A stretch of DNA of 64,000 nt from contig OZ245011.1 in NCBI GenBank assembly GCA_965223665.1, positions 1,472,001 to 1,536,000 on the forward strand, read 5' to 3'. Below, piece after piece: positions 6,943 through 61,316 of the stretch. Each line of letters opens with the position of its first letter. Position 1 is the stretch's first letter. This DNA comes from Nitrospinaceae bacterium. GTDB taxonomy: Bacteria; Nitrospinota; Nitrospinia; Nitrospinales; Nitrospinaceae. The notes under the pieces are model-generated. The model worked only from the letters and a program-made list of their open reading frames with translations, made no database searches and was not told the origin of the DNA. The position numbers and the translations under genes are program-made.

Positions 6943-7259
6943 CGCCGGTCCCTTTCAAAGTTGCCATCAGTAGGTTCATTATAATACAGGATTTGAAAAA
7001 TTAAAATAGGGTGACCCGAGAGCGTATTTTTTCGAGAAAAAGGGTCCATACATTAAGGAACTTTTTCACCCAAACCGGAAAATCTATCGGATCCCACGCC
7101 ACTGAATCACGACCCTAAAACAGATAAGATTGCTCAAACCCATAAGATAAACATTGCATGAAATAATATTCCTTTTTGGATTTGGTTATAAGTATACTGG
7201 AATATAGGGTATTTACTTTCGACCCAAAGTTGACACATTAAAAAACATAAGTTTTAAAC

Positions 7260-7661
7260 ATGCAGAATTACATCGTAACATTTGAATCAAATCAATTTGA
7301 TCTTAAAGGAGAAAAAGAAAACCCCATTAACCCTATTCGTGGTTTGTCCATAGGAGAGTGGATAGTTCCATTATTAAATGAACGTGGAGTAAAAACATCT
7401 TCTATTGAACCTGAAGATTGGGGATGGTATTTGTATGCCGAGCACGAAGGCTCCCGCTACCTGCTTGGGTTTGCTGCCAATGAAGGTGAAGAAGTCGGTG
7501 ATGAACCGGAAATTATGATTCAAATAGAAAAGCAGAGGACATTCCTTGAAACCATTTTATTCAAAAATAAAATGGAAGATAATGACGGGCTTCTAAAGAT
7601 CGTAGAAAATCTTGCTTCTCAAATACCGAATGTCAAAAAACTTGAAACACAACCCGCTTAA
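7260..7661 (+). CDS. hypothetical protein
   Basis: 133-aa acidic ORF with EDWGW motif; preceded by a family-C palindrome at 7215-7235. Confidence 0.7.
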   Translation: MQNYIVTFESNQFDLKGEKENPINPIRGLSIGEWIVPLLNERGVKTSSIEPEDWGWYLYAEHEGSRYLLGFAANEGEEVGDEPEIMIQIEKQRTFLETILFKNKMEDNDGLLKIVENLASQIPNVKKLETQPA

Positions 7662-7695
7662 TTTAGAAAAACATTTCTCTCTTTTAATTTAAAAA

Positions 7696-8352
7696 ATGCG
7701 AAGAAAACAATCTACAAACAATCAAGGGACGCGTTCCAATATGTATAGTGAATCCAAATTCACCAATTGGGCGCGTTTTGATCCTATTGGCAGTGCCATA
7801 GAAAAATTCTATTTCAAACATAGCGAAGAGCTGGAAAAATGCCCCAAAGAACCCGCTTACTTTAAGGAAAAACTCCATTCAGAGTTTCTGATGCCGGTAA
7901 CCATCTATGAGTTAAAAACTCAGTTTCAAAAAATCCCGCAAGAGTTCACCTCCGGAATCCGGGGAATATTTTTGCTGGGAGGTTCCAGGAAACAACTCAA
8001 AGCCTGCTGGAGCAAATTGTTTTGTTTTGGCACCTATTGGCTGGATTGCATTTTTATCCTTCCTTATCCCAAAGAACGCATGGAAATAAATTTCAAAACT
8101 TCTCCTAGTCCTCATATTTTGAATGACTACAAAAGAGTGGGCGCTAAGGTGACAAATTCTACTAAAGGAGGGGTCACCGTGAGTTATAGTGAGGAAAATT
8201 TGAAGGCGTTTTATTTAAGGGATGTTTTTGTTCACGAGATCGGACATCATGTGGACAAGTCTTTTTCCAAACACAGGAACAAAAAGGAAGGTTTCGCTGA
8301 GTGGTTTGCCACCGAGTATGGATTTAAATTCAAGTTTTATTCTGATGAATAG
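7696..8352 (+). CDS. putative zincin-type metallopeptidase / hypothetical protein
   Basis: HEIGH (HExxH) motif followed by EGFAE. Confidence 0.6.
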   Translation: MRRKQSTNNQGTRSNMYSESKFTNWARFDPIGSAIEKFYFKHSEELEKCPKEPAYFKEKLHSEFLMPVTIYELKTQFQKIPQEFTSGIRGIFLLGGSRKQLKACWSKLFCFGTYWLDCIFILPYPKERMEINFKTSPSPHILNDYKRVGAKVTNSTKGGVTVSYSEENLKAFYLRDVFVHEIGHHVDKSFSKHRNKKEGFAEWFATEYGFKFKFYSDE

Positions 8353-8466
8353 ATTCAATTTCTTCTTGCATCCATCCGCCTAACTGATTAAATTTTAAGT
8401 ATATTCTCTCGTTGCGTTATTTCATATCAACGCAACCTTCAACCCTCCAAAAAAGGAACTCACACC

Positions 8467-9051
8467 ATGCGCCTGCCCTCCCCTTCAGAAAAAAATATCA
8501 AACGCCTCTATATTCTTTCATTGCTGATTTTCATTTCTATTCCCTTTGGCTTCTATGAGATCTCTTCCACCCGCGCCGGAACGTCGCCGGATTGCGTTGG
8601 GAACATCTCCGCGGATTACCTGAAGGCCAAGACTCATTACCAGAATGAACTGCACGATCTCATCACCAAAACCGCACCGGACCTCACCGTACTCGCCGGA
8701 ATCAATCGCGACCTGCAAGTCGCCCTGGCCGAAGACCGACACGCCCGATTACTTTTTCTGCTTGCCTCTAATAAGGAACGAATCGTCACGGACAAAGGCA
8801 TGTCCCGATTCAGCAACTTCGACTGGAACGCGGGAGACCAGAAATCCTTTCTGAAAGTTTCTGCGAATCACCAAAGCCAGACCGATCGCATCACAAAACT
8901 TAAAGAAAAGAACAATAACCATCCCGACTGGCCCAGAATGCGCAATCTCTTCCGCGAAAAACTTTTCTTAAAACCCGAATACCAGGCCATTCAAAAAGAA
9001 CTGACCACCCAAACCAAAGCCCTGGGCCAACAACTGAAACGTTGCCAATGA
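8467..9051 (+). CDS. secreted or membrane-anchored helical hypothetical protein; its 3' end is the apparent source of repeat family A
   Basis: AAGGA RBS, N-terminal hydrophobic segment; nt 8898-9120 recur downstream. Confidence 0.75.
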   Translation: MRLPSPSEKNIKRLYILSLLIFISIPFGFYEISSTRAGTSPDCVGNISADYLKAKTHYQNELHDLITKTAPDLTVLAGINRDLQVALAEDRHARLLFLLASNKERIVTDKGMSRFSNFDWNAGDQKSFLKVSANHQSQTDRITKLKEKNNNHPDWPRMRNLFREKLFLKPEYQAIQKELTTQTKALGQQLKRCQ

Positions 9052-9120
9052 GCAGACTTAAAATTCAAAACAAATGAGCTCACTAAAATCAATTAATAAA
9101 TAAAGCATGCTACACTATCC
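8898..9120 (+). repeat. repeat family A, intact master copy (gene 3' end + promoter)
   Basis: Segments align by eye to 12689-12775, 13774-13828, 14718-14807, 20646-20763, 24402-24516 and 43175-43266. Confidence 0.8.
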
Positions 9121-9174
9121 GCTTAAAGGTTTGATATCGATATTCAACTCCGAGTATTAAATCAGGAGGACACC

Positions 9175-12784: not shown

Positions 12785-13846
12785 TTGAATGGAAGACTTC
12801 TTTTGAAGCTTGAATTTTTATATCGCCTCAAAAATAAATTTAAAATTGAATATCATATAACTTTGAAAACTTTTTTATATCTCTTACTTACCAGTGTTCT
12901 GCTCACCGCCTGTTCGAATTCACAGGTCACCTCCCAAAACACTCGTCCAAGTTCTGGGGTGGAACCCGCCTCCCGCGTAATCCCGGCGTCCGATGTCCAG
13001 TGGGTGGCGCTGAACCCCGCCCGCGGCGATAAAAGCCCAAAAGCGGGAACTCTCTGGGGCGATCGCACCGGCTCCGGTCCATCCGGCTTTCTGGTTAAGT
13101 TTGTGGATGGCTTCTCGTCGCCTGCGCATATTCACAACATCACCTACCGCGGAGTGGTCATCAGTGGGCTCGTTCACAACGATCATCCTGATGCGGACAA
13201 TCACTGGATGTCGGTGGGTTCTTACTGGACGCAACCTGCGGGAGCGGTGCACCTTACCTCTGCTAAGGGAAGTATGAATCTGGCGTACATAGAGATTGAA
13301 GAGGGGCCGTATCTCGTCCTTTCCACAAAGAAAGCGTTTGATAATGGAGATAGGCCGGTGAAAGTGGACGCATCGAACATTGATTGGATCCATCCGCCCG
13401 GAACGTCAGTTCCTTCCCATGGACTGAAGGTCGCTTTGCTCTGGGGCAAGCCGTCCGACGGCCAGTTGAACGGAACTCTTGTCAAACTGTCCGCCGGGTT
13501 TTCCGGTGAGCTTAGCAGCCCAGGCCCAACCTTACGCACGGTAGTTATCCAGGGTCTCGCAAAGCATCGAATGTCAAACGGAACCGACATCAAGACACTG
13601 GAGCCGGGCAGCTATTTCAGTTCAAAAGGGGAGTTGGCGCACCAGGTTTCATGCGAAGCAGGAAAAGACTGCATTCTCTACGTCCGCACAGAAGGCAAGT
13701 TCGGTATCCTTCCAGTGCCGCCCGGGAATTATCTTTCCCCGATTTACGCATTAAAAGTTTTCTTCTCTCAACCCAAAAACACTCACCACCCAAACCCAGG
13801 CCATGGGCCAACAACTGAAAAGTTGCCATGGAACAAGGGTCTGTAA
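12785..13846 (+). CDS. DUF4437-type cupin lipoprotein
   Basis: [38 protein letters not shown] motifs; lipobox LTAC; true start probably TTG 12863; C-terminus runs into a repeat A remnant. Confidence 0.8.
13774..13828 (+). repeat. repeat A copy lacking the promoter part
   Basis: CAAAAACACTCACCACCCAAACCCAGGCCATGGGCCAACAACTGAAAAGTTGCCA vs master 8992-9047. Confidence 0.75.
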
Positions 13847-13859
13847 AAAAATGGGCCCG

Positions 13860-14534
13860 TTATTTAGATGGCTGACCCGCGTTTAATCGGTTGGCCTCTT
13901 CATGATGCCAAAGGATTTGCTCACGAAGCTCCAAAATTTCCTCACGGTTGGCTTTTATAAGCTCATTCCACTCATTCCGTTTTGTTCCTTTTGGATCCAG
14001 ATAGGGTTTCTTATTGAACCGCTCCACTCGTTGCTGCAAGTGAACCACCTTGGCTTCCAGCCGTACTGCATCCTCATCCAGCAAGTCAGCAGCTTCGAGA
14101 TGCTCTTCTGAAGACCACTCCATGGCAGCTTTTGGCGAAAGTTGAGAAGCCAGCGCTTTCTTTCCGGATGACGATACCCCGTTTAACCGGTCGGCCTCTT
14201 GATTATGCCAGGCGATCTTATCATGAAGCTCCGAAATTTCGGCACGGTATGTTGATATACGCGATTTCCACTTTCGTCGCTTGACTCCTTTCAGATCGAG
14301 ATGCTTCTTCTTTTCGAACCGCACCACCCGTTGCTTCAGGTGAGCCACCTGGTCTTCCAGCCTTACCGCTTCTTCATGCAACAGGTCAGCCGCCTTCCGG
14401 TGCTCTTCTGCAGACCAATCCTTGACCTCCTGAGCGGAAAGGTGGGGAGGCAACACCTGTGTTTTGTTCTGCGCACAACCAAGAGAGAGACTCATCAAAA
14501 CAATACCCGTAAGAGCAACCATTCTATTTTTCAT
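13860..14534 (-). CDS. lipoprotein with two tandem ~105-aa coiled-coil repeats
   Basis: Lipobox SLGC; WSAEEHRKAADLL...WHNQEADRLN repeated as WSSEEHLEAADLL...WHHEEANRLN. Confidence 0.8.
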   Translation of the reverse strand: MKNRMVALTGIVLMSLSLGCAQNKTQVLPPHLSAQEVKDWSAEEHRKAADLLHEEAVRLEDQVAHLKQRVVRFEKKKHLDLKGVKRRKWKSRISTYRAEISELHDKIAWHNQEADRLNGVSSSGKKALASQLSPKAAMEWSSEEHLEAADLLDEDAVRLEAKVVHLQQRVERFNKKPYLDPKGTKRNEWNELIKANREEILELREQILWHHEEANRLNAGQPSK

Positions 14535-14717
14535 AGTTCACATCCTTCTTGTAAACAAAAAGATTAAAATTTGATGTTTATTCTTCTTTATGATCTGCTT
14601 TCAACGAAAAATATTCCCCAGTGATTCGGAATATACCGTCTTTTATTTAATTATTAAGATATCAATTCTGTAAAAACGATTCGAGTTTCTAGATTCGTTC
14701 AAGTCGGTCCCATAGAC

Positions 14718-14807
14718 CAAAAGAATGGCCCACCAAACTCAAGCCATGGGCCAATAGAATCCATAAGGCAATAGAATAGCGCCCTAAACAAAGCATGCTA
14801 TAATTCC
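14718..14807 (+). promoter_or_regulatory. repeat A copy with extended -10 promoter
   Basis: CAAAAGAATGGCCCACCAAACTCAAGCCATGGGCCAA ... TAAACAAAGCATGCTATAATTCC. Confidence 0.7.
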
Positions 14808-14938
14808 TAATCGGATTCGAATTAAAAATCTTTTTATAAAATTTTAAATTCTACTGTCAACCCCAGTGAACATCCAATTTTTAAAATTCACTTGTCACAC
14901 GTGTCGAAGGGAATTCTGTCATTTAATGGAGAGAAAAT

Positions 14939-17563: not shown

Positions 17564-18580
17564 ATGATCGAAGTGGTAATGGTTTTTCTGGCAGGGGCAC
17601 TTTTGCTTTATGTGTTGTTAGGCGGAGCGGACTTCGGCGCGGGCATTCTGGAAATGTTTGTCAATCGCAAAACTCGAAGCCAACAGAAAACTATTATCAA
17701 CAAGGCCATGGGGCCGGTCTGGGAGGTCAACCACATCTGGCTGATCATCGCCGTGGTCATCATGTTCAACGCGTTCCCCAAAGCCTTCAGTCAAATTTCA
17801 GTCACATTTCACATTCCGCTGACCATCATGTTAGTGGGCATCATCACTCGCGGGTGCGCGTTTGCCTTTCGCAACTACGACGCGTATCGGGATCAGTCGC
17901 AGAAGTACTATTCACTCGCGTTCGAAATTTCCAGCGTCTTGACACCGTTCAGTTTAGGCCTGACGCTTGGCGGAATCTTGATCGGACGAATCAATCCGCA
18001 AGCAGATTCGTTTTACGCCGCGTTCATTGATCCGTGGTTCAACGTGTTCTCGTTTACACTAGGAATTTTTACCTGCTGTCTGGTTACTTACATCGCCTCG
18101 GTTTACATCATCGGAGAAACTCGAAAACAAATTCTTCGGCGACAATTCGTTTACCGGGCCAAGGTGGCAGGAGTCGTGACTTTTATCATGGGAGTTTTAG
18201 TCATCGAGGCGGCGGTGTTTTACGAATCGGAACTGTTTTCCAAATTTTATTCGGACGGATTCAGTCTGTCGTGTATTTTTCTCGCGGCCATCCTGTCCGT
18301 ACCGCTATGGAAATTATTGAACCATCCTCGCGCAATCCTTGCGCGCCTGTTGGTGGGGGCGCAGGTGTCGCTGATTTTTCTGGCGTGGTACGAAATGCAG
18401 TTTCCTTTTATTATTGCCCCTTCGGAATTGTTTGGCTTTGAAGGACTCAATCTGTATCAAGTCGCGGCACCGGAAAGCACCTTCAAATATCTGTTGATTG
18501 CGCTGGTCGCCGGATCGGCAATTATTTTTCCCGCCTGGTTGTATCTTATCCGCGTGTTCAAGTTTCGATGGAATTCATAG
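17564..18580 (+). CDS. cydB: cytochrome bd oxidase subunit II
   Basis: GADFGAG, GPVWEVNHIWL; follows cydA. Confidence 0.94.
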   Translation: MIEVVMVFLAGALLLYVLLGGADFGAGILEMFVNRKTRSQQKTIINKAMGPVWEVNHIWLIIAVVIMFNAFPKAFSQISVTFHIPLTIMLVGIITRGCAFAFRNYDAYRDQSQKYYSLAFEISSVLTPFSLGLTLGGILIGRINPQADSFYAAFIDPWFNVFSFTLGIFTCCLVTYIASVYIIGETRKQILRRQFVYRAKVAGVVTFIMGVLVIEAAVFYESELFSKFYSDGFSLSCIFLAAILSVPLWKLLNHPRAILARLLVGAQVSLIFLAWYEMQFPFIIAPSELFGFEGLNLYQVAAPESTFKYLLIALVAGSAIIFPAWLYLIRVFKFRWNS

Positions 18581-19267: not shown

Positions 19268-19360
19268 GATGTGCTCCCTCTTTTCTAAAGAGGGCTGGGG
19301 TGATTCACATTCAGGGGTTTGCGGCGAACCGCTGCAGGTAAAATTCATTTGTGATGAATA
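19268..19360 (-). repeat. REP/MITE-like repeat family D
   Basis: Reverse complement aligns with 49764-49856; hairpins CCCTCTTTTCTAAAGAGGG and GCGGCGAACCGC. Confidence 0.7.
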
Positions 19361-19464
19361 GGCCCGTAATCGAACCCAAGAGGACCGGTCATAGTCACTG
19401 AGAAATGTCCCTATATGAGTCCACGAAAGTCGGTCGGAATGTAAGATAAGAGAAAAGCCCCTCT

Positions 19465-20556
19465 TTACCTTTCAATTGGCAATTTAAAGAAAAAAGTGCT
19501 TCCCTCTCCCAGTTTGCTCTTTACCCCCACTTCCCCACCATGAAGATGAATGATCTTTTTAACTATCGCTAATCCAAGTCCGGTCGACTTTTCTCCTCCG
19601 GTGGGTTTGGTACTCAACTTTTGAAATTCACCGAACAATAATTTTTGATCTTCATCCGATAAGCCCTGCCCTTCATCCTTAACAGAAAATTGAATATGGT
19701 TGTCCACTGTTTCGGTAAAAATATGAACCTTAGTTTTGGGTGGTGAAAACTTGATTGCGTTGCCTATAAAGTTTCCCATCGCCTGCACGATGGCACTTTC
19801 ATCAAATAGAACCATGGGGATCTCCCCAAGTTTGAGGTCCAAATTAATATCTTTTTTCTTGGCGAGTAATTGATTTAATTCAAATTGAGAACGGGCCAAC
19901 AAATTTAAATCCTGGACTTTCAAGTCCAATTCTATTTTCCCGCTTTCAATTTTGGAAATATCCAACAGGTTTTCTAAAAGATTCCTCATGTAATTACTGG
20001 AATTAAAAATTTTTTCCAGTAATTCCCTTTGTTTATCATTTAACTTCCCAACGCCTTCACCCTTAAGAACTTCACTAAACGATTGAATCAAATATAAAGG
20101 ATTCCTTAAATCGTGAGAAGCAATCCCCAAAAATTTATTTTTAGTGTCGTTCAATTCCAAAAGCTGCTTATTTTTTTCCTTGATCTCCGTTAAGTCTCTT
20201 TCGATCGCTGCGAAATGAGTGACCTCTCCCTTTTCATTTTTCAAAGGAATGATATTGATATCCAGCCAGTACTTGGTTCCGCTTTTTGAATAATTAACGA
20301 TGGAAGTTCTTATGGGTTCTTCTTTTTCCAAAGCGGCTCTTATTTCCGCTTTAGTTTCAGGATCCGATTCCGGCCCCTGTAATATCCTCGGCGTTTTTCC
20401 CAGAACTTCATTGAGTGTATACCCGGTTAACTGAGTAAACGCTTCATTGACATAAACTATTTTTGGTCCGGGCTCATCAAGAGGTTGAGCCTCGGTTACG
20501 ATCACGATATCATTGGCAAATCGAACCACATCCTCAATCGAAAATTCCAATTTCAT
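19465..20556 (-). CDS. cytoplasmic PAS-domain sensor histidine kinase (orphan)
   Basis: PAS/PAC, H-box SHDLRNPL, N-box NAIKF, DEGQG and GLGLAI G-boxes. Confidence 0.93.
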   Translation of the reverse strand: MKLEFSIEDVVRFANDIVIVTEAQPLDEPGPKIVYVNEAFTQLTGYTLNEVLGKTPRILQGPESDPETKAEIRAALEKEEPIRTSIVNYSKSGTKYWLDINIIPLKNEKGEVTHFAAIERDLTEIKEKNKQLLELNDTKNKFLGIASHDLRNPLYLIQSFSEVLKGEGVGKLNDKQRELLEKIFNSSNYMRNLLENLLDISKIESGKIELDLKVQDLNLLARSQFELNQLLAKKKDINLDLKLGEIPMVLFDESAIVQAMGNFIGNAIKFSPPKTKVHIFTETVDNHIQFSVKDEGQGLSDEDQKLLFGEFQKLSTKPTGGEKSTGLGLAIVKKIIHLHGGEVGVKSKLGEGSTFFFKLPIER

Positions 20557-20613: not shown

Positions 20614-20642
20614 AATGTCCCCTTTTTGCCGAATGTAGACCT
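20614..20642 (+). repeat. family C short palindrome
   Basis: AATGTCCCCTTTTTGCCGAATGTAGACCT, abutting the repeat A copy at 20646. Confidence 0.6.
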
Positions 20643-21258: not shown

Positions 21259-21963
21259 ATGAAAACCGCGCACCTGAAAATATCGTTTTTTATTGTTATG
21301 ATTTCTGCCTGTGTGGCCTGTGCCACCCAAGCCCAGGATCCGGACCTCTCTCCTCAAGCGAAGAACGCCCCGACCCGCTCCATTTATCTGGTGAACCAGG
21401 GCTGGCACGCCGGCATTATTGTGAAACGCGCGGATATCCCCGACGGCGTCTGGCCAGAGCACAAAGACTTACCGGATAGCGAGTACCTGGAGTTGGGTTG
21501 GGGAGACCGGGATTTTTACCAGGATTCGGACCCAAACTTTTGGGTCGCATTCAAGGCGGCCTTGTGGCCCACGGAGAGCGTCCTGCACATCGTCATTTTC
21601 AACGGGTCCGTGACCAAATACTTTGCCCACCGCGAAATCATCAGAATCGAGCTCTCTGAAACGGGATTCGAAAAACTGTGCCGCTATTTTTCACAGAGTT
21701 ATGCCAGGGACGATGCCGGTAAGCCCATTTCCCTTGGTCCCGGATTGTACGGAGTAAGTCGCTTCTATCTATCGCAGGAGACCTATCACGGATTCAAAAC
21801 CTGCAACGTCTGGACAGCGCGGGCCCTCCGTTCCGCAGGGGTACCCATCACTTCGACGATGACAATCAAAGTGGAAAGCCTCATGTCCGAAGCCCGCACC
21901 CACGGCACCGTGGTCCAACCCGAACCCGTTGCTTCCGGAAGGGCTTCTCCTAAGAAAGGTTGA
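21259..21963 (+). CDS. DUF2459-family lipoprotein
   Basis: GWHAGI, LGWGDRDFY, TCNVWTARAL motifs. Confidence 0.8.
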   Translation: MKTAHLKISFFIVMISACVACATQAQDPDLSPQAKNAPTRSIYLVNQGWHAGIIVKRADIPDGVWPEHKDLPDSEYLELGWGDRDFYQDSDPNFWVAFKAALWPTESVLHIVIFNGSVTKYFAHREIIRIELSETGFEKLCRYFSQSYARDDAGKPISLGPGLYGVSRFYLSQETYHGFKTCNVWTARALRSAGVPITSTMTIKVESLMSEARTHGTVVQPEPVASGRASPKKG

Positions 21964-21979
21964 CTACCAATGATATTAG

Positions 21980-22261
21980 GTGAATGAAATGAAAATAAAA
22001 ACGTTGAAAGATGTGAGGCGTGCCTGGTTGATTCATTGGTGTGTGTTTTTAAGTGCGCCGCTAGTTTACATATTATTTGTTGTTGTGTTTAACTCCTTTA
22101 TCTCTGAAAGCGCTGTAATTCTGATAACAATGTCTGTTGTTGGGGTTGTTTCGCTAAGAACTGCAATGATTAAATGTCCAAAATGTGGGGAGCATTTCTT
22201 TCCCAGTTACGGCATGACATCTATTTGGACGGGTCGATGTAATGGTTGCGGAGTTCATTGA
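21980..22261 (+). CDS. small two-TM protein with a C-terminal zinc ribbon
   Basis: Two hydrophobic helices, CPKC...CNGC. Confidence 0.65.
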   Translation: MNEMKIKTLKDVRRAWLIHWCVFLSAPLVYILFVVVFNSFISESAVILITMSVVGVVSLRTAMIKCPKCGEHFFPSYGMTSIWTGRCNGCGVH

Positions 22262-22652
22262 AAAGAGAAATAAAGAATGATTATTTTTGAGTATTTAAAC
22301 AAATCGTCAAACACCAGTTTCGTTCAAAATCTTACTCACCTGTTTCCCACGCTAAACAGACGTTCGATTATCAAGACAAACTTTTGACTAGAAACCTCAC
22401 ACCTCTCTTTAAAACCTGTTACCAACCCGCTTCCGGAAATCAAACTGCTTAGTGATCACGAGGAGGACAAACACAAAGATTTAAAACGAAATCTTATAAA
22501 GGAATTGGGCGAAACAGGTATGTCGTTAGCATTTCGGAGAAGGATCGGATGCCAATAAATATAAACTTATAAGAAAACCTTAACCATTACTCAGAGATCC
22601 ACAATCTAATTGAGGGTATCTGAGAAACGCTACGTGATTGAACAATGATCAC

Positions 22653-24122
22653 TCAATCACTAGATAAATCCATTTCAGGAACCACAAGAATTGAGCTGAG
22701 GATATCAAGAGAGTTTGAAAAAAACTCATTAAGTTCTCGAGAAAGATTATCCTCTATACTTTTAGATAGAACTTTTAATTCAGATTCATTTTGCTGGAGC
22801 CATTTAGCCACGGAAACTGAGGAAGCAATTTCAATAATTCCGCCCTCAAGTGCACCATCTAATTCACTTCTAAACTTTTTAAATAATTCTTGCATATTCC
22901 CATTGCCAATTTTGGTTGCTGATTCCTCGGAATCAAATCGTTCTTTCCCAACAAAACCCATTCCGCGCAGTAACTCCCACGCAAAATCCGCGTATCCACG
23001 GACAATTAAGTATGCATATGTTTTCTTTATACCGTATTTATTTGTATAGCCTTGTGGCTCAGGGATTCTAAATGTATCGGAAATATCAGATCCAGCTCCT
23101 TTAAGAATTGCTTTCCACTCATACTCAGATTTGATGTACGAAAAATACTTTGGAGGTTCAGATTGTTGTATGAGTGTTCCAATTTCAATTGGCTTAATTC
23201 TATAATCAAGTACCATTCGAAGATGGTCCGACGAAAACTCCGAAGTTGATTTTGAGACCATTTGAACCTTTAAGAGTTCGGAGGGAATTATGAAGTTAAA
23301 TGCTCTCTGTATTACCGACTCAAGCCTGCTTTCAATCATTTGAAGTGCCTTATTTGACAACTCCTTCTCTGGATTAAGCAAATAATGGTGCCTCTTAATA
23401 AGTTGTTCGTGAATCTTCACTTGTTTTTCGGCCGTAGCTAAACGAGCGTCATAATCTGGAATGTCGTTTTTTTTATTCTGCGCTTGTTTTATTCGTTTCA
23501 GTACGTTTTTCCATTCAACGAAATTTAGGTTTTCTTTTTCACGATTTTTTAACACAGTTAGATAAGCAGAAGAGAGCTCATCTACCTTTCGTTTAACTTC
23601 TAACACTAGGCAAGTAGATTCTGTAACGGCCCCTTGTACAACAACATTCCCCAGCGCTAATGGAATTGATCCTACTGGCAATTTTGTGGTATGTCGAAGA
23701 AGAGTAAAGAAGGCTATTTGTTCTTTCATTCTTTTCCGCGCAAGGTTTCTAGCAACAGATATTTTGAATCTTTTTGTATCAAGCTTGAGATAATCAGAAT
23801 AGGCCTTAAACGTGTCTTCAGACTTACATTTAGCCCAAATGCGCCTGTCACGAATGTAAGCTGTGATTAGCCATACCAAATACAATATTGCTGCTATAAT
23901 GCTTGAAAGGACTGCTGAAAGTAATACAGATTTAGAAAAAAGGTAGTAAAGAATTCCGACAAATATTGCTATAAAAAAACCAATCGAGAATGTTTTACTT
24001 TTTTGGAATATTCTAAGAAAGGTTCGGCATACTATAAGAATAACAGTAACCACGATCAAGCCTGCAAGAGACTTTAAAATAAAAAGTGCCCAAGATTCCA
24101 TTATTCCCCCCCAGCTTTTCAA
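22653..24122 (-). CDS. AT-rich membrane-anchored hypothetical protein
   Basis: 489-aa ORF, three N-terminal TM segments, coiled-coil middle; start probably ATG 24101. Confidence 0.7.
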   Translation of the reverse strand: MKSWGGIMESWALFILKSLAGLIVVTVILIVCRTFLRIFQKSKTFSIGFFIAIFVGILYYLFSKSVLLSAVLSSIIAAILYLVWLITAYIRDRRIWAKCKSEDTFKAYSDYLKLDTKRFKISVARNLARKRMKEQIAFFTLLRHTTKLPVGSIPLALGNVVVQGAVTESTCLVLEVKRKVDELSSAYLTVLKNREKENLNFVEWKNVLKRIKQAQNKKNDIPDYDARLATAEKQVKIHEQLIKRHHYLLNPEKELSNKALQMIESRLESVIQRAFNFIIPSELLKVQMVSKSTSEFSSDHLRMVLDYRIKPIEIGTLIQQSEPPKYFSYIKSEYEWKAILKGAGSDISDTFRIPEPQGYTNKYGIKKTYAYLIVRGYADFAWELLRGMGFVGKERFDSEESATKIGNGNMQELFKKFRSELDGALEGGIIEIASSVSVAKWLQQNESELKVLSKSIEDNLSRELNEFFSNSLDILSSILVVPEMDLSSD

Positions 24123-24401
24123 GATGGTATCTTAAAACTAACAATTTGAGAATAAGCGCAATTTTCTTTCGCACAAATCAAGTTAAACGAAATTAAATTG
24201 GTGATTTTACTTTTTAATCCGAATTTGTCAATCTCATTTAATAGTGATTCGAATCAATGTTATTTATAAACAAGGATTTATGCCAAGGAGAGCAATGCGG
24301 CGCGATTGCAGTGGATAACAGCCATCGAAAACAAGCAGGCTCAATCACTATATGAATCCATGGAAGTCAATATAAGTACCTGGTTGCTTTACTCCGGCAA
24401 G

Positions 24402-24516
24402 ACTTAAAGAAAAATATCCAACCCGACCGGTCCAAAATGCCCCCCTTTTTCACAAAACCTTATAGAACAAATGGGCTTAATTAAGTTTAGGCAGTAAACA
24501 AAGCATGCTATAATCC
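24402..24516 (+). promoter_or_regulatory. repeat A copy with extended -10 promoter in front of the AbiTii-like gene
   Basis: ACTTAAAGAAAAATATCCAACCCGACCGGTCCAAAATGC ... TAAACAAAGCATGCTATAATCC, then AAGGAG RBS. Confidence 0.75.
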
Positions 24517-24537
24517 ACGTTTAAAGGAGAACTTTTT

Positions 24538-25464
24538 TTGAGCCTATTACAAGAAATTCAGGAGTCTGTTATTCAAGAAGGGACAGAAGTTGCTTCAGTC
24601 TTACTAAAACTTCGCCTTCTGTCATCGCGTTTGGGGAGTGCCACGCTAGAAGAGTGGGTTAAATTTGAATCTGAAGGCTACCCTAGCGATGCTCATATAC
24701 CAAATTACCGGAATATTCCCGTAACCTATAGAGGGTCATTTGCAGGTCCTTTTGGAGCCAGCGTAACGAACGCATCCATTCCTCCGCATATCATTGAGAA
24801 AAACGCTGGAAAACATTGGACAAATTATAAGCTAAGGCAAAGTATTGCCTCCATAGATGATATGGCAAAAAGTTCATCTAAAAAAACCGAAGCACTTCAT
24901 ATTAATGCAGCAAATTTAATTCTGCTAATACAAGGAAAAATGTACCCAGATTACTCGTGCTATGAGATTCGTGGAATTGTTTCGCCGACAAGTCTTGTGG
25001 AAGTACAACATGTAGTTAAAAGTAGAGTTCTGGAATTAACTATTCAACTTGAAAAATCAATTCCAGCCGCCAAGGATGTTACATTTGGGAAACGACAATC
25101 AAATATCAGCGAAACTTCAGCTAAGGTATCACAACTTTCACAGCAAATTATTTTTGGGAATTACACATCAATTTCCAGCAGTGGTGAGGGAGCTCAATTT
25201 CAAATAAATTTTGAAAAGGGTGATAATGAAGCGTTTAAAAAATGCCTTATCGATGCAGGCATTGATCAATCTGATGCTACTGATTTGGCTGAAATCATTG
25301 CTTCAGAAGAACCTGGAGATAAAAATGAACCCCTTGGTTTAAAAGCAAAAAAATGGGTAGTTAAAAACCTAATGAAGGCTATCGACGGTACTTGGAAAGT
25401 TGGCATATCTGTAGTTACAGAAGTTATTAAAAAGGCAGCTCTTAAGTTTTATGGCTTGGGTTAA
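24538..25464 (+). CDS. AbiTii-domain protein (putative abortive-infection protein)
   Basis: N-terminus LLQEIQ...LLKLRLLSSRLG...EEWVKFESEGY...PNYR resembles the AbiTii domain pattern (recognised by eye). Confidence 0.7.
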   Translation: MSLLQEIQESVIQEGTEVASVLLKLRLLSSRLGSATLEEWVKFESEGYPSDAHIPNYRNIPVTYRGSFAGPFGASVTNASIPPHIIEKNAGKHWTNYKLRQSIASIDDMAKSSSKKTEALHINAANLILLIQGKMYPDYSCYEIRGIVSPTSLVEVQHVVKSRVLELTIQLEKSIPAAKDVTFGKRQSNISETSAKVSQLSQQIIFGNYTSISSSGEGAQFQINFEKGDNEAFKKCLIDAGIDQSDATDLAEIIASEEPGDKNEPLGLKAKKWVVKNLMKAIDGTWKVGISVVTEVIKKAALKFYGLG

Positions 25465-25782
25465 TATACAACCGAAATATTTTTATAACTACTATCATAT
25501 GACACAAGATTAAAATTGGGGCAATTTTCATTCAAGCTTTAAACTATTTTCTTACCAAAACTATTTTCACAAACTAACGGCCCAATGCGGATATTCATTG
25601 TAGGACTTATGTAATTCATTTAATAACCGGGGTATATTTTAGTTTTCCTTTTTCACTAGTCCCTTTACAATGGCATGCGATCACATATCCAAAATTGACT
25701 TAATCTCTTCAATGTAGTTTAATCATTCAACAATAAATAGGCGATAATTAAAATAACAAGTAAAATAATTTGAGGGAAATGG

Positions 25783-27129
25783 ATGATTTCAGGATGGCAT
25801 TTAAAAAATTATAAGTCTTTTGACGAAGTATCTATGGAGCTTAGACCATTAACCATTTTTGTTGGTCCAAATAATTCGGGTAAATCTTCTCTAATTTCTC
25901 CTCTTAGAATTTTAATACAAACCATCGAGAGTTTTGATTCTGAATTACCGTTAGTACTTAATGGCACTTTAGGAGATTTTGGAACATACAAAGATGTCGT
26001 TTTCCAAAATACTAGGCGAAGAGATATTGAGATATCTTTAGATTTTTATAACAAGTCCATAAACTTTACAAATCCTGACAGAAAAGATCTAATTAAAGTT
26101 GACTTAAAATTTTCTTACAGAGGTGTAAGAAGGGAAATAATTTTAAAGGGAATTAAAATAACTGATAGCAAGGAAATATTATTAGAAACCAGATATTCAA
26201 ATACGACAGGAAAACAATTAGTTCATAAGTTTGCAAATATCACAATTCCTAAACAGGTAAGTAGTTCATTTTCGAAGGGTCTCAGAATTTATAATTTCAT
26301 ACCTCATTTTACCCCCTTATATCTTTTTGAAATGAAAAATAAAAAGAGTATTCCAAACTCTTTCCTAAAAAATTTAACAGACTCCGAGTTGAGTAATGCT
26401 GCGCGCAAAATTATAAGGACAGGCAATTCCCTTCATCGGATGATATTAGACATGGATTATATAGGCCCAATGAGGGTTCCTCCTGAACGAACAATTTTAT
26501 TTACAGGTGAAAAAAGATCAAGGATAGGCGCTCATGGAGAAAATGCTTCAAATATTTTAGCAATGGACTCAATCCGGAGGGGAAAGGAAAAAAGGGGAAT
26601 TAAACAAGAAATAGTTGATTGGTTACAGAAGGCTGGAATTGCTGGCGATATAAATATCAATTTACTTTCGGACAGACATTATGAAATTAAAATTCAAAAT
26701 GAGCAAACCAAAGAGTATCAGAATTATGCGGATGTAGGATATGGGAACAGTCAGGTTATTCCCATTTTAGTCGGCGGTTTTAATATGGCAAAAAATTCAA
26801 CCTACATCATGGAAGAACCAGAAATACATTTACATCCAAAAGCACAGGCCGAACTGGGGGACTTTTTAATACGACTACACAAAAAGCAAGTACAGGCAAT
26901 TGTGGAAACTCATAGTGAGCATATGATTCTAAGACTCCAACAACATGTGGCCTCTAAGAAAATATCCAATGGCGATGTAATTTTTTATTATGTATGTGGA
27001 ACTGAAAGCGGAAAAACAATTACAAAATTAGAAATGGATAGCCAGGGAAGGTTTGTTGATGAATGGCCGGGAGGATTTTTTCCACAAAGATTAAATGAAG
27101 CAAAAAAACTGGCAAAATTAAGGTATTAG
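25783..27129 (+). CDS. ABC-type/AAA_21 ATPase with DUF3696-like C-terminus
   Basis: Walker A GPNNSGKS, VGYGNSQ signature, Walker B IMEEPEIHLHP, ETHS, WPGGFF. Confidence 0.88.
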   Translation: MISGWHLKNYKSFDEVSMELRPLTIFVGPNNSGKSSLISPLRILIQTIESFDSELPLVLNGTLGDFGTYKDVVFQNTRRRDIEISLDFYNKSINFTNPDRKDLIKVDLKFSYRGVRREIILKGIKITDSKEILLETRYSNTTGKQLVHKFANITIPKQVSSSFSKGLRIYNFIPHFTPLYLFEMKNKKSIPNSFLKNLTDSELSNAARKIIRTGNSLHRMILDMDYIGPMRVPPERTILFTGEKRSRIGAHGENASNILAMDSIRRGKEKRGIKQEIVDWLQKAGIAGDININLLSDRHYEIKIQNEQTKEYQNYADVGYGNSQVIPILVGGFNMAKNSTYIMEEPEIHLHPKAQAELGDFLIRLHKKQVQAIVETHSEHMILRLQQHVASKKISNGDVIFYYVCGTESGKTITKLEMDSQGRFVDEWPGGFFPQRLNEAKKLAKLRY

Positions 27130-27147
27130 AATAGATTTGGTCTTTTT

Positions 27148-28123: not shown

Positions 28124-28155
28124 AATTTTATGAGCGTAGTGACCGCGCGCCAGTT

Positions 28156-28740: not shown

Positions 28741-29034
28741 ATTTGCCTCCCAACTATATTTACAAAACGTGCAGCTAACCGGTGGCCGGAAACAAACGAT
28801 GTCGAATGTCTTGTAATTAAATAGTTCCCGTATATAATCCCAAACGGAAAAGTATACTATTTATTTCCAAATAGTACAGTTTGTCTAAATATTTAGCTAG
28901 TTCTGTGGAGATTTATTGCAGGATTTGATTGACTGGTTCTTGCCGACTGTTAACGACCCAAAGCGGTTTCGCAATTGGTGAAAACCAAAATTGGCGTAAT
29001 TGCTTTTAGAAAAAAAATGCTGAAAGGAGAAAGA

Positions 29035-29436: not shown

Positions 29437-29465
29437 AATGGCCGCTTTGGGCCGAATGCAGACAT
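29437..29465 (+). repeat. family C short palindrome
   Basis: AATGGCCGCTTTGGGCCGAATGCAGACAT. Confidence 0.65.
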
Positions 29466-29502
29466 AACTTGAAAACAAAAAACAACTTCCTCATGAAAAA
29501 AA

Positions 29503-38827: not shown

Positions 38828-38853
38828 AATGTCCGCTTTTGGCCGTTAGTGGT
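38828..38853 (+). repeat. family C short palindrome
   Basis: AATGTCCGCTTTTGGCCGTTAGTGGT. Confidence 0.65.
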
Positions 38854-39545: not shown

Positions 39546-39652
39546 CTTGCCGGATTTGATTAAAAATCCGGTTTTAGGTATAAGGGGTTTATTAGCGATC
39601 CCAGGCGGACCTGAACCATAACTTTAATTTATTAATCAACCGACACAAAACA

Positions 39653-40676: not shown

Positions 40677-40761
40677 TTCGATTCTCCTTTTATGTGAATA
40701 TTAACGGGACACAAACGTGCCCAATATTTTTTGAGAATACGTAATGTCTGTTTTTAAGTAT

Positions 40762-40800
40762 ACTGTACGAAATGTAGTAATTAACTACAGAAAACGTAGT
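40762..40800. promoter_or_regulatory. two ACT-N11-AGT boxes between the divergent OsmC and HxlR-type genes
   Basis: ACTGTACGAAATGTAGT (40762-40778) and ACTACAGAAAACGTAGT (40784-40800). Confidence 0.5.
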
Positions 40801-40817
40801 TAAAGGAGTCTTCTAAA

Positions 40818-41510: not shown

Positions 41511-41571
41511 GGGACTGCAGGTGCAGAAGATTACTATTTCAAACCCAGTAAAAATGAATAGATAAAAAAAT

Positions 41572-42402
41572 ATGTCTTTCGATGAAAATGTCTCTGAACA
41601 TTACACCCATGGAAATTTGCTTAATGCCGTCAAAAGGGGAATTGAACAACTGGGCAAGACTTCAAGCTCTATCACAGTAGAAGACCTGGCACCTTTGGAT
41701 GAATTTCATATTGGGGGCCGACAGGCTTCAGAAAATTTTTTTGATCAACTCAATTTTTCAGCGGAAGATCATCTTGTCGATGTTGGATGTGGACTCGGTG
41801 GGGCATCGCGGTTCGTTGCCAAAAGATACAACAGCAAAGTTACAGGCATCGATTTAACTCCGGAGTATATAGAAACCGGAAAAGCGCTTTGCACCTGGCT
41901 GGGATTGGATAATCGGGTTGATCTGCAACAAGGCAGCGCTCTTAACTTGCCCTTCGAAAAAGATGTTTTTGACGGAGGTTACATGATGCACGTGGGGATG
42001 AACATCCAGGACAAGATTGGATTATATAAGGAGATTTTTCGGGTGCTTCGCCCTGGTGCTGATTTTGGAGTTTATGATGTCATGCGGGTGGAAGAGGGTG
42101 AATTAATGTATCCGGTTCCATGGGCAAGTACCGCTAATGAAAGTAACGTGGCAAGTCCCGAACAGTATAAACAGGCAATCGAAGAAGCGGGTTTTAAAGT
42201 GACTTCAGAAAATAACCGACATGAATTTGCTCTGTCGTTTTTCGAACAATTACAAAAACATTCTAACAAGGCAGAGGGTCCGCCCCCCTTAGGCATTCAT
42301 ATTCTTATGGGAAACAATTCGGCTGCTAAAGTACAGAATATGATCAAAAACGTTTCCGCCGGGCTTATCTCCCCTGTTGAGCTTATCGCCAGAAAAATTT
42401 AG
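41572..42402 (+). CDS. class I SAM-dependent methyltransferase
   Basis: DEFHIGG, VDVGCGLGG, GIDLT, LPF, RVLRPG. Confidence 0.9.
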   Translation: MSFDENVSEHYTHGNLLNAVKRGIEQLGKTSSSITVEDLAPLDEFHIGGRQASENFFDQLNFSAEDHLVDVGCGLGGASRFVAKRYNSKVTGIDLTPEYIETGKALCTWLGLDNRVDLQQGSALNLPFEKDVFDGGYMMHVGMNIQDKIGLYKEIFRVLRPGADFGVYDVMRVEEGELMYPVPWASTANESNVASPEQYKQAIEEAGFKVTSENNRHEFALSFFEQLQKHSNKAEGPPPLGIHILMGNNSAAKVQNMIKNVSAGLISPVELIARKI

Positions 42403-42416
42403 TCAGCGATTGAAAT

Positions 42417-42445
42417 AAGGTCCACTATCGGTCGAAAGTGGACAC
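42417..42445 (+). repeat. family C short palindrome (perfect 7-bp stem)
   Basis: GTCCACT-ATCGGTCGAA-AGTGGAC. Confidence 0.65.
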
Positions 42446-42584
42446 CCATTTAAATTAAAAAACAAACTTTTCTCAGAGTCACACCATCCACAACAGAAGT
42501 GTCCTTGATTAAGAAAGATTGAGAAGTAGAAACGGCCAGCCTGTTTGTATTGACCTCAACGCGACGACTCAAACTGTTTTGCAA

Positions 42585-42938
42585 TCAGGGAAAAGGAATA
42601 TGAACCCCAACTCCAATATCAACACCACCCTCAATAGTCGGTTTATTTTGTCCGCCTGAATTACGGGGTTGCCGGACGTCAGGGTAATCCCCTCGCTGCT
42701 TTGTCGGGTAGTGACTGATTCTTCTGGGCTGACATTTTTTAGCATGTCCGGGAGGGACTTTTCCTTGTTTAGCTAACCCGGGTGGTGTACCACAACGACT
42801 GTTGTGACTTTTGGAATAATTGCCATTTCCTTTATGTTTTCCCCATTTTTTACCACCTGCAAATGAAACAGATGAAAAGAGAAAAATTAATACCAACGCC
42901 GGGATCACAAAAAATACCGATTTATTCATGGACCGCAT
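42585..42938 (-). CDS. secreted low-complexity protein with PPGLAK motif
   Basis: Signal peptide ending SFA, PPGLAKQGKVPPGHAKK; GAGGAG RBS. Confidence 0.7.
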   Translation of the reverse strand: MRSMNKSVFFVIPALVLIFLFSSVSFAGGKKWGKHKGNGNYSKSHNSRCGTPPGLAKQGKVPPGHAKKCQPRRISHYPTKQRGDYPDVRQPRNSGGQNKPTIEGGVDIGVGVHIPFP

Positions 42939-43174
42939 TCAATATCCTCCTCAGTTATAAAAATTATAAAAACAGGTTAAGGACATTACCGGGTTTGTGA
43001 AACAGATAAATGTGGGGAGAATCCAAAGGATTGAAAAATCAGATCAACAAAAATTTAATTTTCCAGGTAAATCTATGCCATTGCAAACGCTTTATAATCA
43101 TTTCTTTTTCAAATGGAGACCTGCCTCCTGAGTAAGGAAAAAACGCAGCACAGATAATCCAGGAATTCTGGACT

Positions 43175-43726: not shown

Positions 43727-43838
43727 TATAGATCGTTTCCAAGTCCGCTAATGATATTGCCATCTCCTTTCAGGATGATAGAATCCAAAGTGGAAAAGTT
43801 ATATAATTGTTAAAAAGCATCGATAAAGGTTAATTATT

Positions 43839-59366: not shown

Positions 59367-59409
59367 CTGGCTGGCCTCTGTATCATAGCCGCATGAAGAG
59401 ACGAACCTT

Positions 59410-59799
59410 ATGAAATCATTTAAAGAGAATCTTACAAAGAGCGAGGCGAAAATTATCGACAGCATGAGAAAGATAATTACCACCACCGACGCCACTGTGG
59501 AAGAATCTATCGGCCAAATCATGTCTCAGGAAGACTGCTACATCTATAAACAGGAAGACGTTTTCAAATATGGTTTAGCTAAAACAAAAAACCACTTCTC
59601 ATTCCATTCGATGGTGATGTACGCCCATAATGAAATTCGCGAGAACCTCAGCAATAGCGACGCCAATTTAAAACTGCAAAAAGGCTGTGTGAATTTCACC
59701 CGTGCTGAAGACTTTCCTCTGAAACTTTTTGAAAATTTAATGAAACGTTCCGCCTCAATGGATTTTTCTTCTGTCATCGAACATTACAAGAATAAATAA
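59410..59799 (+). CDS. DUF1801-like protein
   Basis: KNHFSFH and KGCVNF motifs. Confidence 0.65.
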   Translation: MKSFKENLTKSEAKIIDSMRKIITTTDATVEESIGQIMSQEDCYIYKQEDVFKYGLAKTKNHFSFHSMVMYAHNEIRENLSNSDANLKLQKGCVNFTRAEDFPLKLFENLMKRSASMDFSSVIEHYKNK

Positions 59800-59827
59800 G
59801 GATCGTAAAATAGTGTAGAATAACCAA

Positions 59828-60715
59828 ATGAAAAAATTCATCAGTTTCATCCTCGTTCTTACATTCATTTCCCCGGCCCAAGCTGAAAAGGATATTGACC
59901 TAAATGATTTTGACCCGGACGTATCTCATTGGATAGAGATAAAAAGACCAGAAAACAATCTCTCACCGGAAGGAGGGGTATTCACTTCTAGCGCTAATTT
60001 TTCAAAACTAAATTGGAAAGTGAGAGAAGACGAAGGAACCATAAAAGCCAGCCTGAATGAACTCGTACCAAAAGAAAAGCCAAAATTCACACCCAAAACC
60101 CCCCAGTTCAATGGAGGACATCGATTCAAGAAGGTGGAGGATGGTTGGCTGGTCGGATTCAATGAGGGCGAATTTGGAGGCGAGCTGTGGTGGTTTTCTA
60201 ACAATGGCCAATCCTCATATAAAATTTCTGATGATCAGATAAATCAATTTATTTTTACAAACAGGAGTATCTTCGCCATCCAGGGGTTAGCGCATTTGGG
60301 CTCTAGAAGAGGAAGTCTAATAAAAATAGATAAAAAGGATGGCCGTTGGGTTTCTACACAAAAGATAGATTTTGGAGAATCGCCAGAAGCAATAATCAGG
60401 ATGGCGGACAACTGGTTTGCAATTGTATTGACGAATTCACTTGTTCGAGTAGATGAAAACTATAATGTCGCAAAAGTTTTGGAAGATGCCCACTGGGGTA
60501 CCTTTTACCCAAATTCTATTGCATCCAATAGTCCACAGTTGGTTTATGTTGGAATGCGTCAGTATGTAGTTGAAATTAATTTAAAAACAAGAAAAGCACG
60601 ATATCTAATTCCTGGAAAGAAATATTTGAATAAGCTACCCCCTGAACAGGAAGAAAGAATCAGAGAACAATATAGGGATTTTTCTAAAATATTAGAAAAG
60701 GAAAGAAGTGAATAA
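59828..60715 (+). CDS. secreted hypothetical protein (beta-propeller-like)
   Basis: Signal peptide ending AQA; GFNEGEFGGELWW, GLAHL, YPNS. Confidence 0.75.
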   Translation: MKKFISFILVLTFISPAQAEKDIDLNDFDPDVSHWIEIKRPENNLSPEGGVFTSSANFSKLNWKVREDEGTIKASLNELVPKEKPKFTPKTPQFNGGHRFKKVEDGWLVGFNEGEFGGELWWFSNNGQSSYKISDDQINQFIFTNRSIFAIQGLAHLGSRRGSLIKIDKKDGRWVSTQKIDFGESPEAIIRMADNWFAIVLTNSLVRVDENYNVAKVLEDAHWGTFYPNSIASNSPQLVYVGMRQYVVEINLKTRKARYLIPGKKYLNKLPPEQEERIREQYRDFSKILEKERSE

Positions 60716-60801
60716 TTATCACCTCTTTCTTAATTTGGTATAAATTTAATTGAAAGTTAGAATCAGGCAATCCAATCCGGTAGTAAAGTAAGGAGACATA
60801 A

Positions 60802-61008
60802 ATGTCGCAAGTGATACTTAATCCCGATGAAGCAAAATCATTGGCCAGAGCCCTGAGTCATTTATTCGTTAGAGAAAGAACAGGGGAGCTTGGGATTACT
60901 CACGGCATGAATCGTTTTGTGAGCACGGATGATCGTTTTAAGAAAAAAGATTTAGAACCTCCGCACTCCGTGTTTTCTAAACTGGGCATCACCTTAACTG
61001 CTGAGTAA
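60802..61008 (+). CDS. small hypothetical protein
   Basis: AAGGAG RBS, 68 aa. Confidence 0.55.
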   Translation: MSQVILNPDEAKSLARALSHLFVRERTGELGITHGMNRFVSTDDRFKKKDLEPPHSVFSKLGITLTAE

Positions 61009-61316
61009 CTTTTGACGGTTTAAACAGTACATTTCATGTCTATCATCTTAATGCCCCATAAATTCATAGGGTGAATCCAATACCCTTTCCGGCATACACT
61101 ATTTTCCCAAGTGGGTTGACTCCGCTTAGTTATACCACAATTGCATGTCCGCTTATGTCGGATTCCCGTCTATAACTCACTCCTGAAACATTCAAGATTT
61201 TGGGTCAACTCTGGAACCGTTTTTGGAGGCGGTCCGTGGTTCCGTTTTCAGGAATTTTTACTGCCAAACCGGTATCTAAATATATAGAGGGTAAGTTGTT
61301 ACTCTATTAAAAGGAG

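Follow-up and report, generated by a model that had tools for sequence, protein, structure and literature searches.

A near-palindromic intergenic element conserved across phyla as a candidate boundary of exchangeable gene cassettes in Nitrospinaceae

Can short, related palindromes lying between the genes of a bacterial genome mark the ends of DNA segments that are exchanged as units? The question is raised by a stretch of 64,000 nucleotides from a Nitrospinaceae bacterium (GenBank assembly GCA_965223665.1, contig OZ245011.1), which we refer to as the window and which covers C1:1472001-1536000 of the source genome (G000; 4.35 Mb, 38% G+C). An original prediction, made from these letters alone, had described in it a ~28-bp imperfect palindrome at the borders of accessory genes. 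We propose, with a probability of about one half, that these elements bound exchangeable gene cassettes, serving as sites of recombination or insertion, and that cassettes would enter by recombination within the element. Three things are directly observed: arrays with a regular architecture, the replacement of cargo between a fixed pair of elements with breaks at their tips, and the presence of one cargo in two separate slots. These lend partial support to the proposed role of the copies as cassette boundaries, and they come mainly from relatives of G000, which are given G numbers herein (G001 is a genome of the same genus), with L numbers for extracted loci.

The replacement of cargo is seen at a locus where a PEP-mutase/NTP-transferase gene (X) is followed by proS. 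The two genes are adjacent in ten genomes of four genera, with gaps of 63-197 bp between the matched ends, and no site lies between X and proS in the six adjacent-form loci that were fetched. In one genus (g2) the same interval holds a left palindrome (type B, minus strand), a cargo and a right palindrome (type A, plus strand), and seven species hold seven different cargos of 1.0-6.7 kb, with a G+C content of 41-53% compared to 54% in the flank. The flanks and the palindromes are orthologous (86-87% identity), and homology ends exactly at ...GGACATT and restarts at AATGTCC.... Between the cargos themselves, searches with blastn (1e-3) and tblastx (1e-5) reveal only a 74-nt terminal extension, common to two of them, and one 34-nt stretch. 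Their contents are a methyltransferase with a CDP-alcohol transferase, SelO, a PrsW protease, a nitrite/sulfite reductase with a transporter, a set of five transport and membrane genes, an Na/H exchanger and a CDP-alcohol transferase, and the genes are on the plus strand in five cases and on the minus strand in two. The cargo-side arms of the palindromes are near-consensus, and the outer arms, inherited vertically, have decayed. A further form of the locus occurs in the metagenome-assembled genome (MAG) G009, in which the X gene, without its stop codon, is joined to the proS leader through a CGGAAAT microhomology with neither palindromes nor cargo (L164, G009:C35:440-500); a second contig of this MAG has an occupied proS slot, and either strain heterogeneity or a deletion may account for the two forms.

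The same cargo in two slots is a 556-residue Na/H-exchanger-TrkA gene, which is found in the proS slot of G012 and, with 80% amino acid identity, at C1:1536772-1538442 of G000, where it lies between two palindromes at a locus other than proS. DNA homology between the two extends from ~20 nt inside the left tip to the stop codon, and the G012 slot has the right-hand site only, the left palindrome being absent. Two further comparisons between G000 and G001 also break at site tips.

The arrays are best understood from the anatomy of the element. Half-sites are of two types, A (...CGCTTTTGGCCG), with the centre TGGCCG, and B (...CGCTTTGGGTCG), with the centre GGGTCG, and a complete element is A on the plus strand followed by an inverted B on the minus strand, with the AATGTCC tips pointing outward. 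The two halves either overlap, which gives a near-palindrome of 30 bp, or stand as much as a few hundred bases apart. Across G000 and 23 loci, site pairs less than 150 bp apart have their tips outward in 14 of 16 cases, mostly as A(+) with B(-), and the 67 neighbouring pairs that are 150-8000 bp apart, when read as A then B, comprise 56 that are co-oriented, 3 that are anti-oriented and 8 that are untyped. These neighbour pairs are not all independent because four of the loci are orthologous copies of one locus; G000 on its own gives the same orientation pattern. Since successive elements are co-oriented, each gene segment lies between a B tip and an A tip, and 34 of the 67 pairs are tips-inward, with A/B heterotypic ends in 30 of these 34. 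The segments parted in this way span 0.3-7 kb, and the cargos consist of one to five genes with their own leader, which corrects the earlier notion of single-gene cassettes. The polarity that had been proposed, with the AATGTCC end facing the cargo, holds: minus-strand copies in the window precede the plus-strand open reading frames (ORFs) at 7260, 25783, 28975 and 39653, and in the relatives all seven fetched pairs point their tips inward toward plus-strand cargo genes, with B upstream in six of the seven.

Many A-type tips are directly preceded by a conserved extension of ~70 nt (...AAAGTGGACC-N-...CTGTTAAACTTTCCTTAGCCG), as seen at L153:3190-3260, L012:1460-1530 and 5780-5850, L050, L065, L099 and L001:10420-10470. 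Its first 13 nt are predicted to be able to pair with the A half-site by way of two G-T pairs, and a sigma-54-like GG-N10-GC within it, upstream of A sites, is a candidate only. Two contigs of the isolate assembly G102 (L193 on C7 and L211 on C5) have the same first 108 nt, followed by a palindrome at whose centre they diverge, and either the repeat breaks the assembly or one left segment has two right neighbours.

The motif itself is a real element and is far above chance. A first weight matrix was made from nine copies of the original prediction, located by their coordinates, and with a score of at least 18 it gives 41 matches in G000 compared to 3, 2 and 7 in three third-order Markov genomes, and with a score of at least 20 it gives 29 compared to 1, 0 and 1. 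A refined matrix for the 22-nt half-site AATGTCCGCTTTKGGYCGAAAG was retrained on genome-wide matches, and at a score of at least 20 it locates 39 merged sites across G000, 35 of which are intergenic on a crude ORF map in which 87% of the genome is coding. Five clusters with a total length of 134 kb, or 3.1% of G000, contain 35 of the 39 sites. They lie at C1 1.452-1.566 Mb, which takes in the window and its surroundings, at C1 2.241-2.245 Mb and 3.027-3.035 Mb, and at the ends of contigs C2 and C4. The G000 islands have single defence-type genes between successive elements, and these include genes for a PIF1 helicase, a trypsin-like protease, DUF4238, a TIR protein, Shedu, AbiJ, AbiV and restriction enzymes. 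The chromosomal cargo is mixed and includes transporters and metabolic genes.

A lineage-specific system is not supported, since the motif is conserved almost letter for letter across phyla. Of 31 genomes from the same order, 29 match a 17-mer when up to two mismatches are allowed, and in G000 the same search yields 29 matches compared to 1 for a reversed control. An exact 18-mer, searched in one genome per species, is present at no fewer than 123 loci with 35-70% G+C, and among the matches listed are Alpha-, Beta- and Gammaproteobacteria, Nitrospinota, Nitrospirota, Planctomycetota and Gemmatimonadota. When aligned, the cross-phylum copies form a 30-bp near-palindrome with 12-nt arms and a 6-nt centre, and among the matches listed at least 8 of the 12 arm positions are paired in 67 of 111 distinct copies, the right arm being outside the search string. 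Five genomes of other phyla contain 7-62 matches compared to 0-4 in controls, and two Gammaproteobacteria, with 62 and 51 matches (controls 1 and 4), carry sites in dense arrays, spaced 0.3-2 kb apart. The genes beside the cross-phylum loci are of all kinds, housekeeping as well as accessory, and the extended form of the element is found, among the named loci, in several Nitrospinaceae MAGs. Strand-specific wobble pairs, which were looked at as a sign of an RNA or single-stranded form, number 50 versus 34, which does not decide the matter. Only weak matches are present in plasmids (6 of 72,556 records), and the 15 loci in viral contigs are at roughly chance level by a rough estimate, several of them representing one Pseudomonas-like flank. 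The motif is the conserved half of a REP-like (repetitive extragenic palindromic) intergenic element that occurs across phyla.

How do the copies in the window compare? When the eleven copies first reported there were rescored with the refined matrix (strong, at least 20; undetected, below 11), six were strong, three were weak, and two, at 19404-19446 and 43741-43753, fell below 11, although these scores are partly circular because the matrix was seeded from those very copies. All six strong copies are intergenic according to the ORF list. The copy at 7216..7237 (-) is a type B half-site with the centre GGGTCG (score 24.3), a decayed partner arm and no hairpin beyond that of shuffled sequences, and its tip is 23 nt upstream of the ORF at 7260-7661(+). 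The copy at 20614..20635 (+) is an A-like half-site (TTTTTGCCG; score 24.7, fold z -0.72) flanked by a histidine kinase gene at 19465-20556(-) and an ORF at 20785(+), and that at 25574..25595 (-), with the centre GGGCCG (score 27.2), lies 188 nt upstream of a gene identified by Pfam as an AAA_15 ATPase (25783-27129(+)). The best half-site in the window is of type A, at 38828..38849 (+) (score 32.2), between icd (35962-38211(-)) and a GGCT-like ORF (38889-39383(+)). Near-palindromes with two scoring arms are found at 29437..29466 (scores 30.8(+) and 22.1(-), fold z -0.73), whose ~40-nt 3' tail reappears beside copies in G001, and at 42417..42446 (26.3(+) and 22.9(-)), 15 nt past the stop codon of a methyltransferase gene (41572-42402(+)). 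The description of the copies as imperfect palindromes thus applies to these two, and the other window copies are half-sites. The three weak copies are a degenerate half-site at 28950..28971 (-) (score 13.7), left of a small ORF at 28975-29196(+), a half-site at 39592..39613 (-) (12.9), left of the ORF at 39653-39877(+), and a copy near the threshold at 61144..61165 (+) (11.2), which may be a chance match.

Only one of nine window copies folds better than its shuffled versions, namely 42414-42448 as single-stranded DNA (-6.2 kcal/mol, z -2.72; 2 of 200 shuffles equal or better). Since the other eight do not fold, it is the half-site sequence that is conserved in the window and not a hairpin, and the view of the copies as hairpin recombination sites is not supported. 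The window copies are mostly conserved half-sites with a decayed partner arm, in other words decaying relics.

Several other features of the window touch on the motif or its neighbours. A degenerate copy at 19365..19388 (-) (score 15.1 with the first matrix) forms the end of a second intergenic repeat family of ~110 nt (...GGGGTGATTCACATTCAGGGGTTTGCGGCGAACCGCTGCAGG...) that terminates in a motif copy, that is seen at 19290-19400 of the window, at G001 C13:2185880-2185960 and in L003 near 18430-18480, and that is probably the "family A" of the original prediction. A decayed motif copy upstream of an OYE gene (~14870) is common to G000 and G001. The region 22000-28000 is a low-G+C islet (34-37% compared to ~45% around it) with genes for AbiTii (24538-25464) and for the AAA_15/AAA_21 ATPase (25783-27129) with a 171-residue partner, and it is likely to be an anti-phage islet.

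If the elements do delimit cassettes, these would be units of one to five genes with their own leader, often for anti-phage defence in islands and for transport or metabolism in the chromosome. Entry would be by Campbell-type recombination within an element, presumably by an enzyme acting in trans, and such entry would give rise to co-oriented successive elements, to B...A flanks, and to the fresh inner and old outer arms that are seen at proS. The different centres of A and B would stop the two flanks of a cassette from recombining with each other, in the manner of heterospecific sites. An enzyme-free route is also possible, in which exchange would take place through short shared homology after the uptake of DNA.

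Several observations weigh against this proposal. Only one orthologous locus, proS, documents repeated exchange, and sister genomes contain no counterparts to the flanks of the two loci (L156 and L195) at which a second was sought. No target-site duplications were seen by eye at the ends of cargos or around solo palindromes, and no circular junctions were seen. Compared with G001, the 120 kb surrounding the window form a mosaic of reordered blocks of 0.3-4 kb (80-95% identity), and most of the synteny breaks are not at sites: of 66 block ends, 8 are within 100 bp of a G001 site with a score of at least 17 and 3 are within 100 bp of such a site in G000, which by a rough estimate is not clearly more than intergenic placement alone could give. 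All six strong window copies are in DNA that is unmatched in the syntenic region of G001, as is ~72% of the window, so that within the window the copies have no significant link to strain-specific DNA. Other G000-specific insertions are bounded by direct repeats of 14-25 bp and not by the motif. Metagenome contigs that hold the window stretch (four runs, two samples, one study) have some repeat-induced joints and none at any motif copy, and the one replacement variant among them, in which in one run a 2.5-kb stretch of the window (21930-24461; ORFs 21980-22261 and 22653-24122) is swapped for 15 other letters, has ends that are not at motif copies. The metagenome result is weak evidence because contigs drop rare variants.

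Just right of the window, at C1:1554388-1557133 of G000 (L003/L004), a 2.75-kb insertion relative to G001 adjoins the upstream side of a tRNA gene; its borders are a direct repeat of 14 bp (GGCGGAATA(G)AAAAT), and it contains a palindrome ~50 bp inside its right end. At 13785-14910 of the window, a gene (13860-14534(-)) that is missing from G001 lies between direct repeats of ~25 bp that copy the 3' end of a DUF4437 gene. The left end of the 21930-24461 variant is also where a G000/G001 homology block ends.

The search for an enzyme adds to the same side of the balance. As had been stated originally, there is no candidate enzyme in the window. No recombinase or transposase recurs beside the sites, the neighbours being unrelated at 80 loci in several phyla, and no shared candidate emerged from Pfam searches of 99 neighbours at loci of other phyla, from an all-against-all blastp of 1640 ORFs, or from blastp of 12 unannotated array proteins. 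The integrases that adjoin four of the arrays are mutually unrelated and belong to different lineages, and no protein with rve or HTH_38 was found in G000. The Y1 transposase domain of the RAYT enzymes (REP-associated tyrosine transposases), PF01797, was not found in G000 or G001; it is present in 7 of 31 relatives, including one (G025) that has no motif matches. Xer-like genes are found in all 31 genomes regardless of motif count. The mechanism by which an HUH enzyme or a tyrosine recombinase would act on hairpins is not supported. In G000 an Xer-like gene is located at C1:634757-635584.

If the element is not accompanied by an enzyme, could it simply be a repeat? The strongest alternative is a selfish or neutral REP-type repeat that resides in dispensable intergenic DNA and rides along with acquired segments, such that its link to accessory genes is a by-product and recombination between dispersed copies occasionally swaps the DNA between them. 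We consider this possible, if on the unlikely side. The element fits the REP definition, and the accessible text of PMC3733652 describes REP super-families without a dedicated transposase in five phyla. It shares with REPs and BIMEs (bacterial interspersed mosaic elements), including CGTC/TGTC-tagged REPs and the Neisseria dRS3 arrays, the form of short extragenic palindromes that occur as dimers and in clusters, and it is hit by an insertion sequence (IS) at its symmetry axis, as are REPs in the available portion of PMC1525189. The decay of the window copies, the lack of an enzyme, and the position of most G000/G001 breakpoints and of the metagenome variant away from sites are also as expected for such a repeat. 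Random insertion, however, fails to predict the co-orientation of 56 pairs versus 3 or the 30 of 34 heterotypic inward pairs, nor would it predict seven unrelated cargos within one vertically inherited pair of palindromes at proS, with breaks exactly at the tips, or the clustering of nearly all G000 sites in so small a part of the genome. Unlike REPs, the element is present in tens of copies that are confined to regions of gene flux, in co-oriented arrays with cargo exchange. The CGTC families, as far as the text available for PMC3733652 describes them, have an unpaired CGTC/TGTC tag, an 8-9-bp stem starting with AT, a 4-5-nt loop and a CCA tail, and in comparison with that description alone the TGTC is present here but paired, followed by a 10-12-bp stem starting with CG and a 6-nt centre. 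A RAYT-mobilised REP was rejected given that PF01797 was not found in G000 or G001.

Integron arrays are the closest parallel in appearance, since in both cases co-oriented sites part mostly co-directional, promoter-proximal gene units that are rich in anti-phage defence genes, with a site just past the stop codon, and an asymmetry in the folding of the two strands may be a further likeness to attC. The original prediction had set these sites apart from attC, and rightly so: there is no IntI and no RYYYAAC/GTTRRRY core, the ends here being AATGTCC...GGACATT, and for these reasons the integron reading was rejected. In contrast to attC, it is sequence and not structure that is conserved across phyla, the cargo breaks at both tips, and the cassettes reach 6.7 kb with their own leaders. 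The integron integrase model TIGR02249 has no hit above its cut-off in any of 31 related genomes, and of five motif-rich genomes of other phyla one, a gammaproteobacterial MAG, has an intI (L189, G105:C53:5521-6420; 405 bits, one in-frame TAG), with no site scoring at least 14 within 16 kb around it.

The pdif modules of Acinetobacter are also similar, as described in those parts of the pdif literature that were available: their sites are imperfect palindromes of ~28-30 bp with an arm-centre-arm layout, inverted sites of two polarities enclose the modules, which shuffle between replicons without an enzyme of their own, and a dedicated IS family targets the sites. They differ in that pdif is plasmid-borne and found in one genus, whereas the elements here are chromosomal and cross-phylum, and in that the half-sites here can stand hundreds of bases apart. 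The motif is also unlike the canonical dif-like site of G000 (CATAA-N6-TTATG), whose core CATAA-TATATG-TTATG lies elsewhere, at C1:720385-720400, ~60 kb away from where the cumulative GC skew peaks (0.66 Mb), and an Xer/dif reading was dropped on this account. Hence the element functions most like attC arrays and pdif modules, departs from both in their defining features, and fits the broad definition of a REP. No description of it was found in a literature search that left most subscription journals uncovered, its motif strings matching only unrelated primers, and queries for cassettes, palindromes and defence returned integron papers only.

A regulatory role for the neighbouring genes, as a transcription-factor operator, an intrinsic terminator or an RNA stabiliser, is very improbable. 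The sites do lie near the ends and starts of genes (15 nt past a stop codon at 42417, 23 nt before a start at 7216), and a palindrome would suit a dimeric binder. Against this, none of the 16 terminator-like sites at 25,000-43,000 of the window coincides with any of the six motif copies there, which speaks against the ordinary terminator that the original prediction had named as an alternative, and eight of the nine window copies do not fold. Rfam gives no match at the gathering score in the window, and over an array it gives four chance-level matches at E<=5. The neighbouring genes are functionally unrelated across phyla, and copies are found at 5' ends, at 3' ends and in tandem.

The palindromes are also the target of an insertion sequence. 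One array holds a transposase gene of the IS30 family (HTH_38 and rve; NF033563, 283-295 bits), homologues of which are present in 31 of 102 genomes of the order, in 1 of 20 in family f1, in none of G000 and G001, and, with 65% identity, in a gammaproteobacterial MAG. The IS is ~1.24 kb long with 27-bp inverted repeats (IRs) starting with TGCGAC (L195-L205, e.g., L015:8487-9725 of G023:C52), and 11 copies of it come from several genera and one gammaproteobacterial MAG. In these copies the 16 nt beyond each of the two ends read AATGTCCGCT(W)TTGGC. Compared with the 26-bp IRs of E. coli IS30A, the IS ends match base for base over their inner 27 nt, starting at TG, and thus the 16-nt motif halves are outside the IS. 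Its flanks rejoin into known asymmetric variants of the palindrome with a 2-bp duplication (GT in L195, GC in L196). The IS30-family element therefore inserts at the symmetry axis of the palindrome with a 2-bp duplication, and the palindrome is its hot-spot target. A preference of IS30 for nearly palindromic hot spots is recorded in the accessible text of PMC9333248, and that of PMC1525189 has other IS families inserting at the symmetry axis of REPs. The present IS is a REP-type target specialist of the IS30 family. As in IS30 hot spots, a nearly palindromic target is cut at its centre with a 2-bp duplication; the difference is that here the target is a dispersed, conserved repeat family that is also present in genomes without the IS. 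The converse idea, that the motif is the tip of IS30-family terminal inverted repeats and the palindromes are miniature inverted-repeat transposable elements (MITEs) mobilised by its transposase, was at first favoured given the motif halves outside both ends of the 11 IS copies, and it is now scarcely credible given IRs that begin 16 nt deeper inside and align with the IRs of IS30A, flanks that rejoin into palindromes with a 2-bp duplication, a transposase that is absent from G000, G001 and most of the family, and the hot-spot preference of IS30. Separately, a MITE-like element of ~135 bp, with inverted ends of its own (...CAGACTGTGTGAAAACTC / GAGTTTTCACACAATCTG...), is located in the centre of an A-type site (L001:10468-10640, G000 C1:3034467-3034639), and similar tails follow the motif in the proteobacterial loci L019, L026, L032, L061, L063, L075, L086, L094 and L137.

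Returning to the elements as boundaries of exchangeable cassettes, the broader picture that they would fit is offered tentatively: a form of cassette exchange that is independent of integrons and crosses phyla, with a bipartite A/B site resembling heterospecific sites and with promoter-bearing cassettes, many of them anti-phage, in fixed slots and in island arrays. If these are true exchange points, they would represent a second, integron-independent way in which distant phyla stock and swap accessory and defence genes, and the 18-22-nt motif would be a simple handle with which to find such cassettes in genomes and metagenomes. The more modest reading would still be useful, since it describes a REP-type repeat that is near-identical across phyla and that obeys an A/B polarity rule, and because an IS30-family element targets this repeat, IS30 joins as a sixth the IS families listed in the available part of PMC1525189 as targeting REPs.

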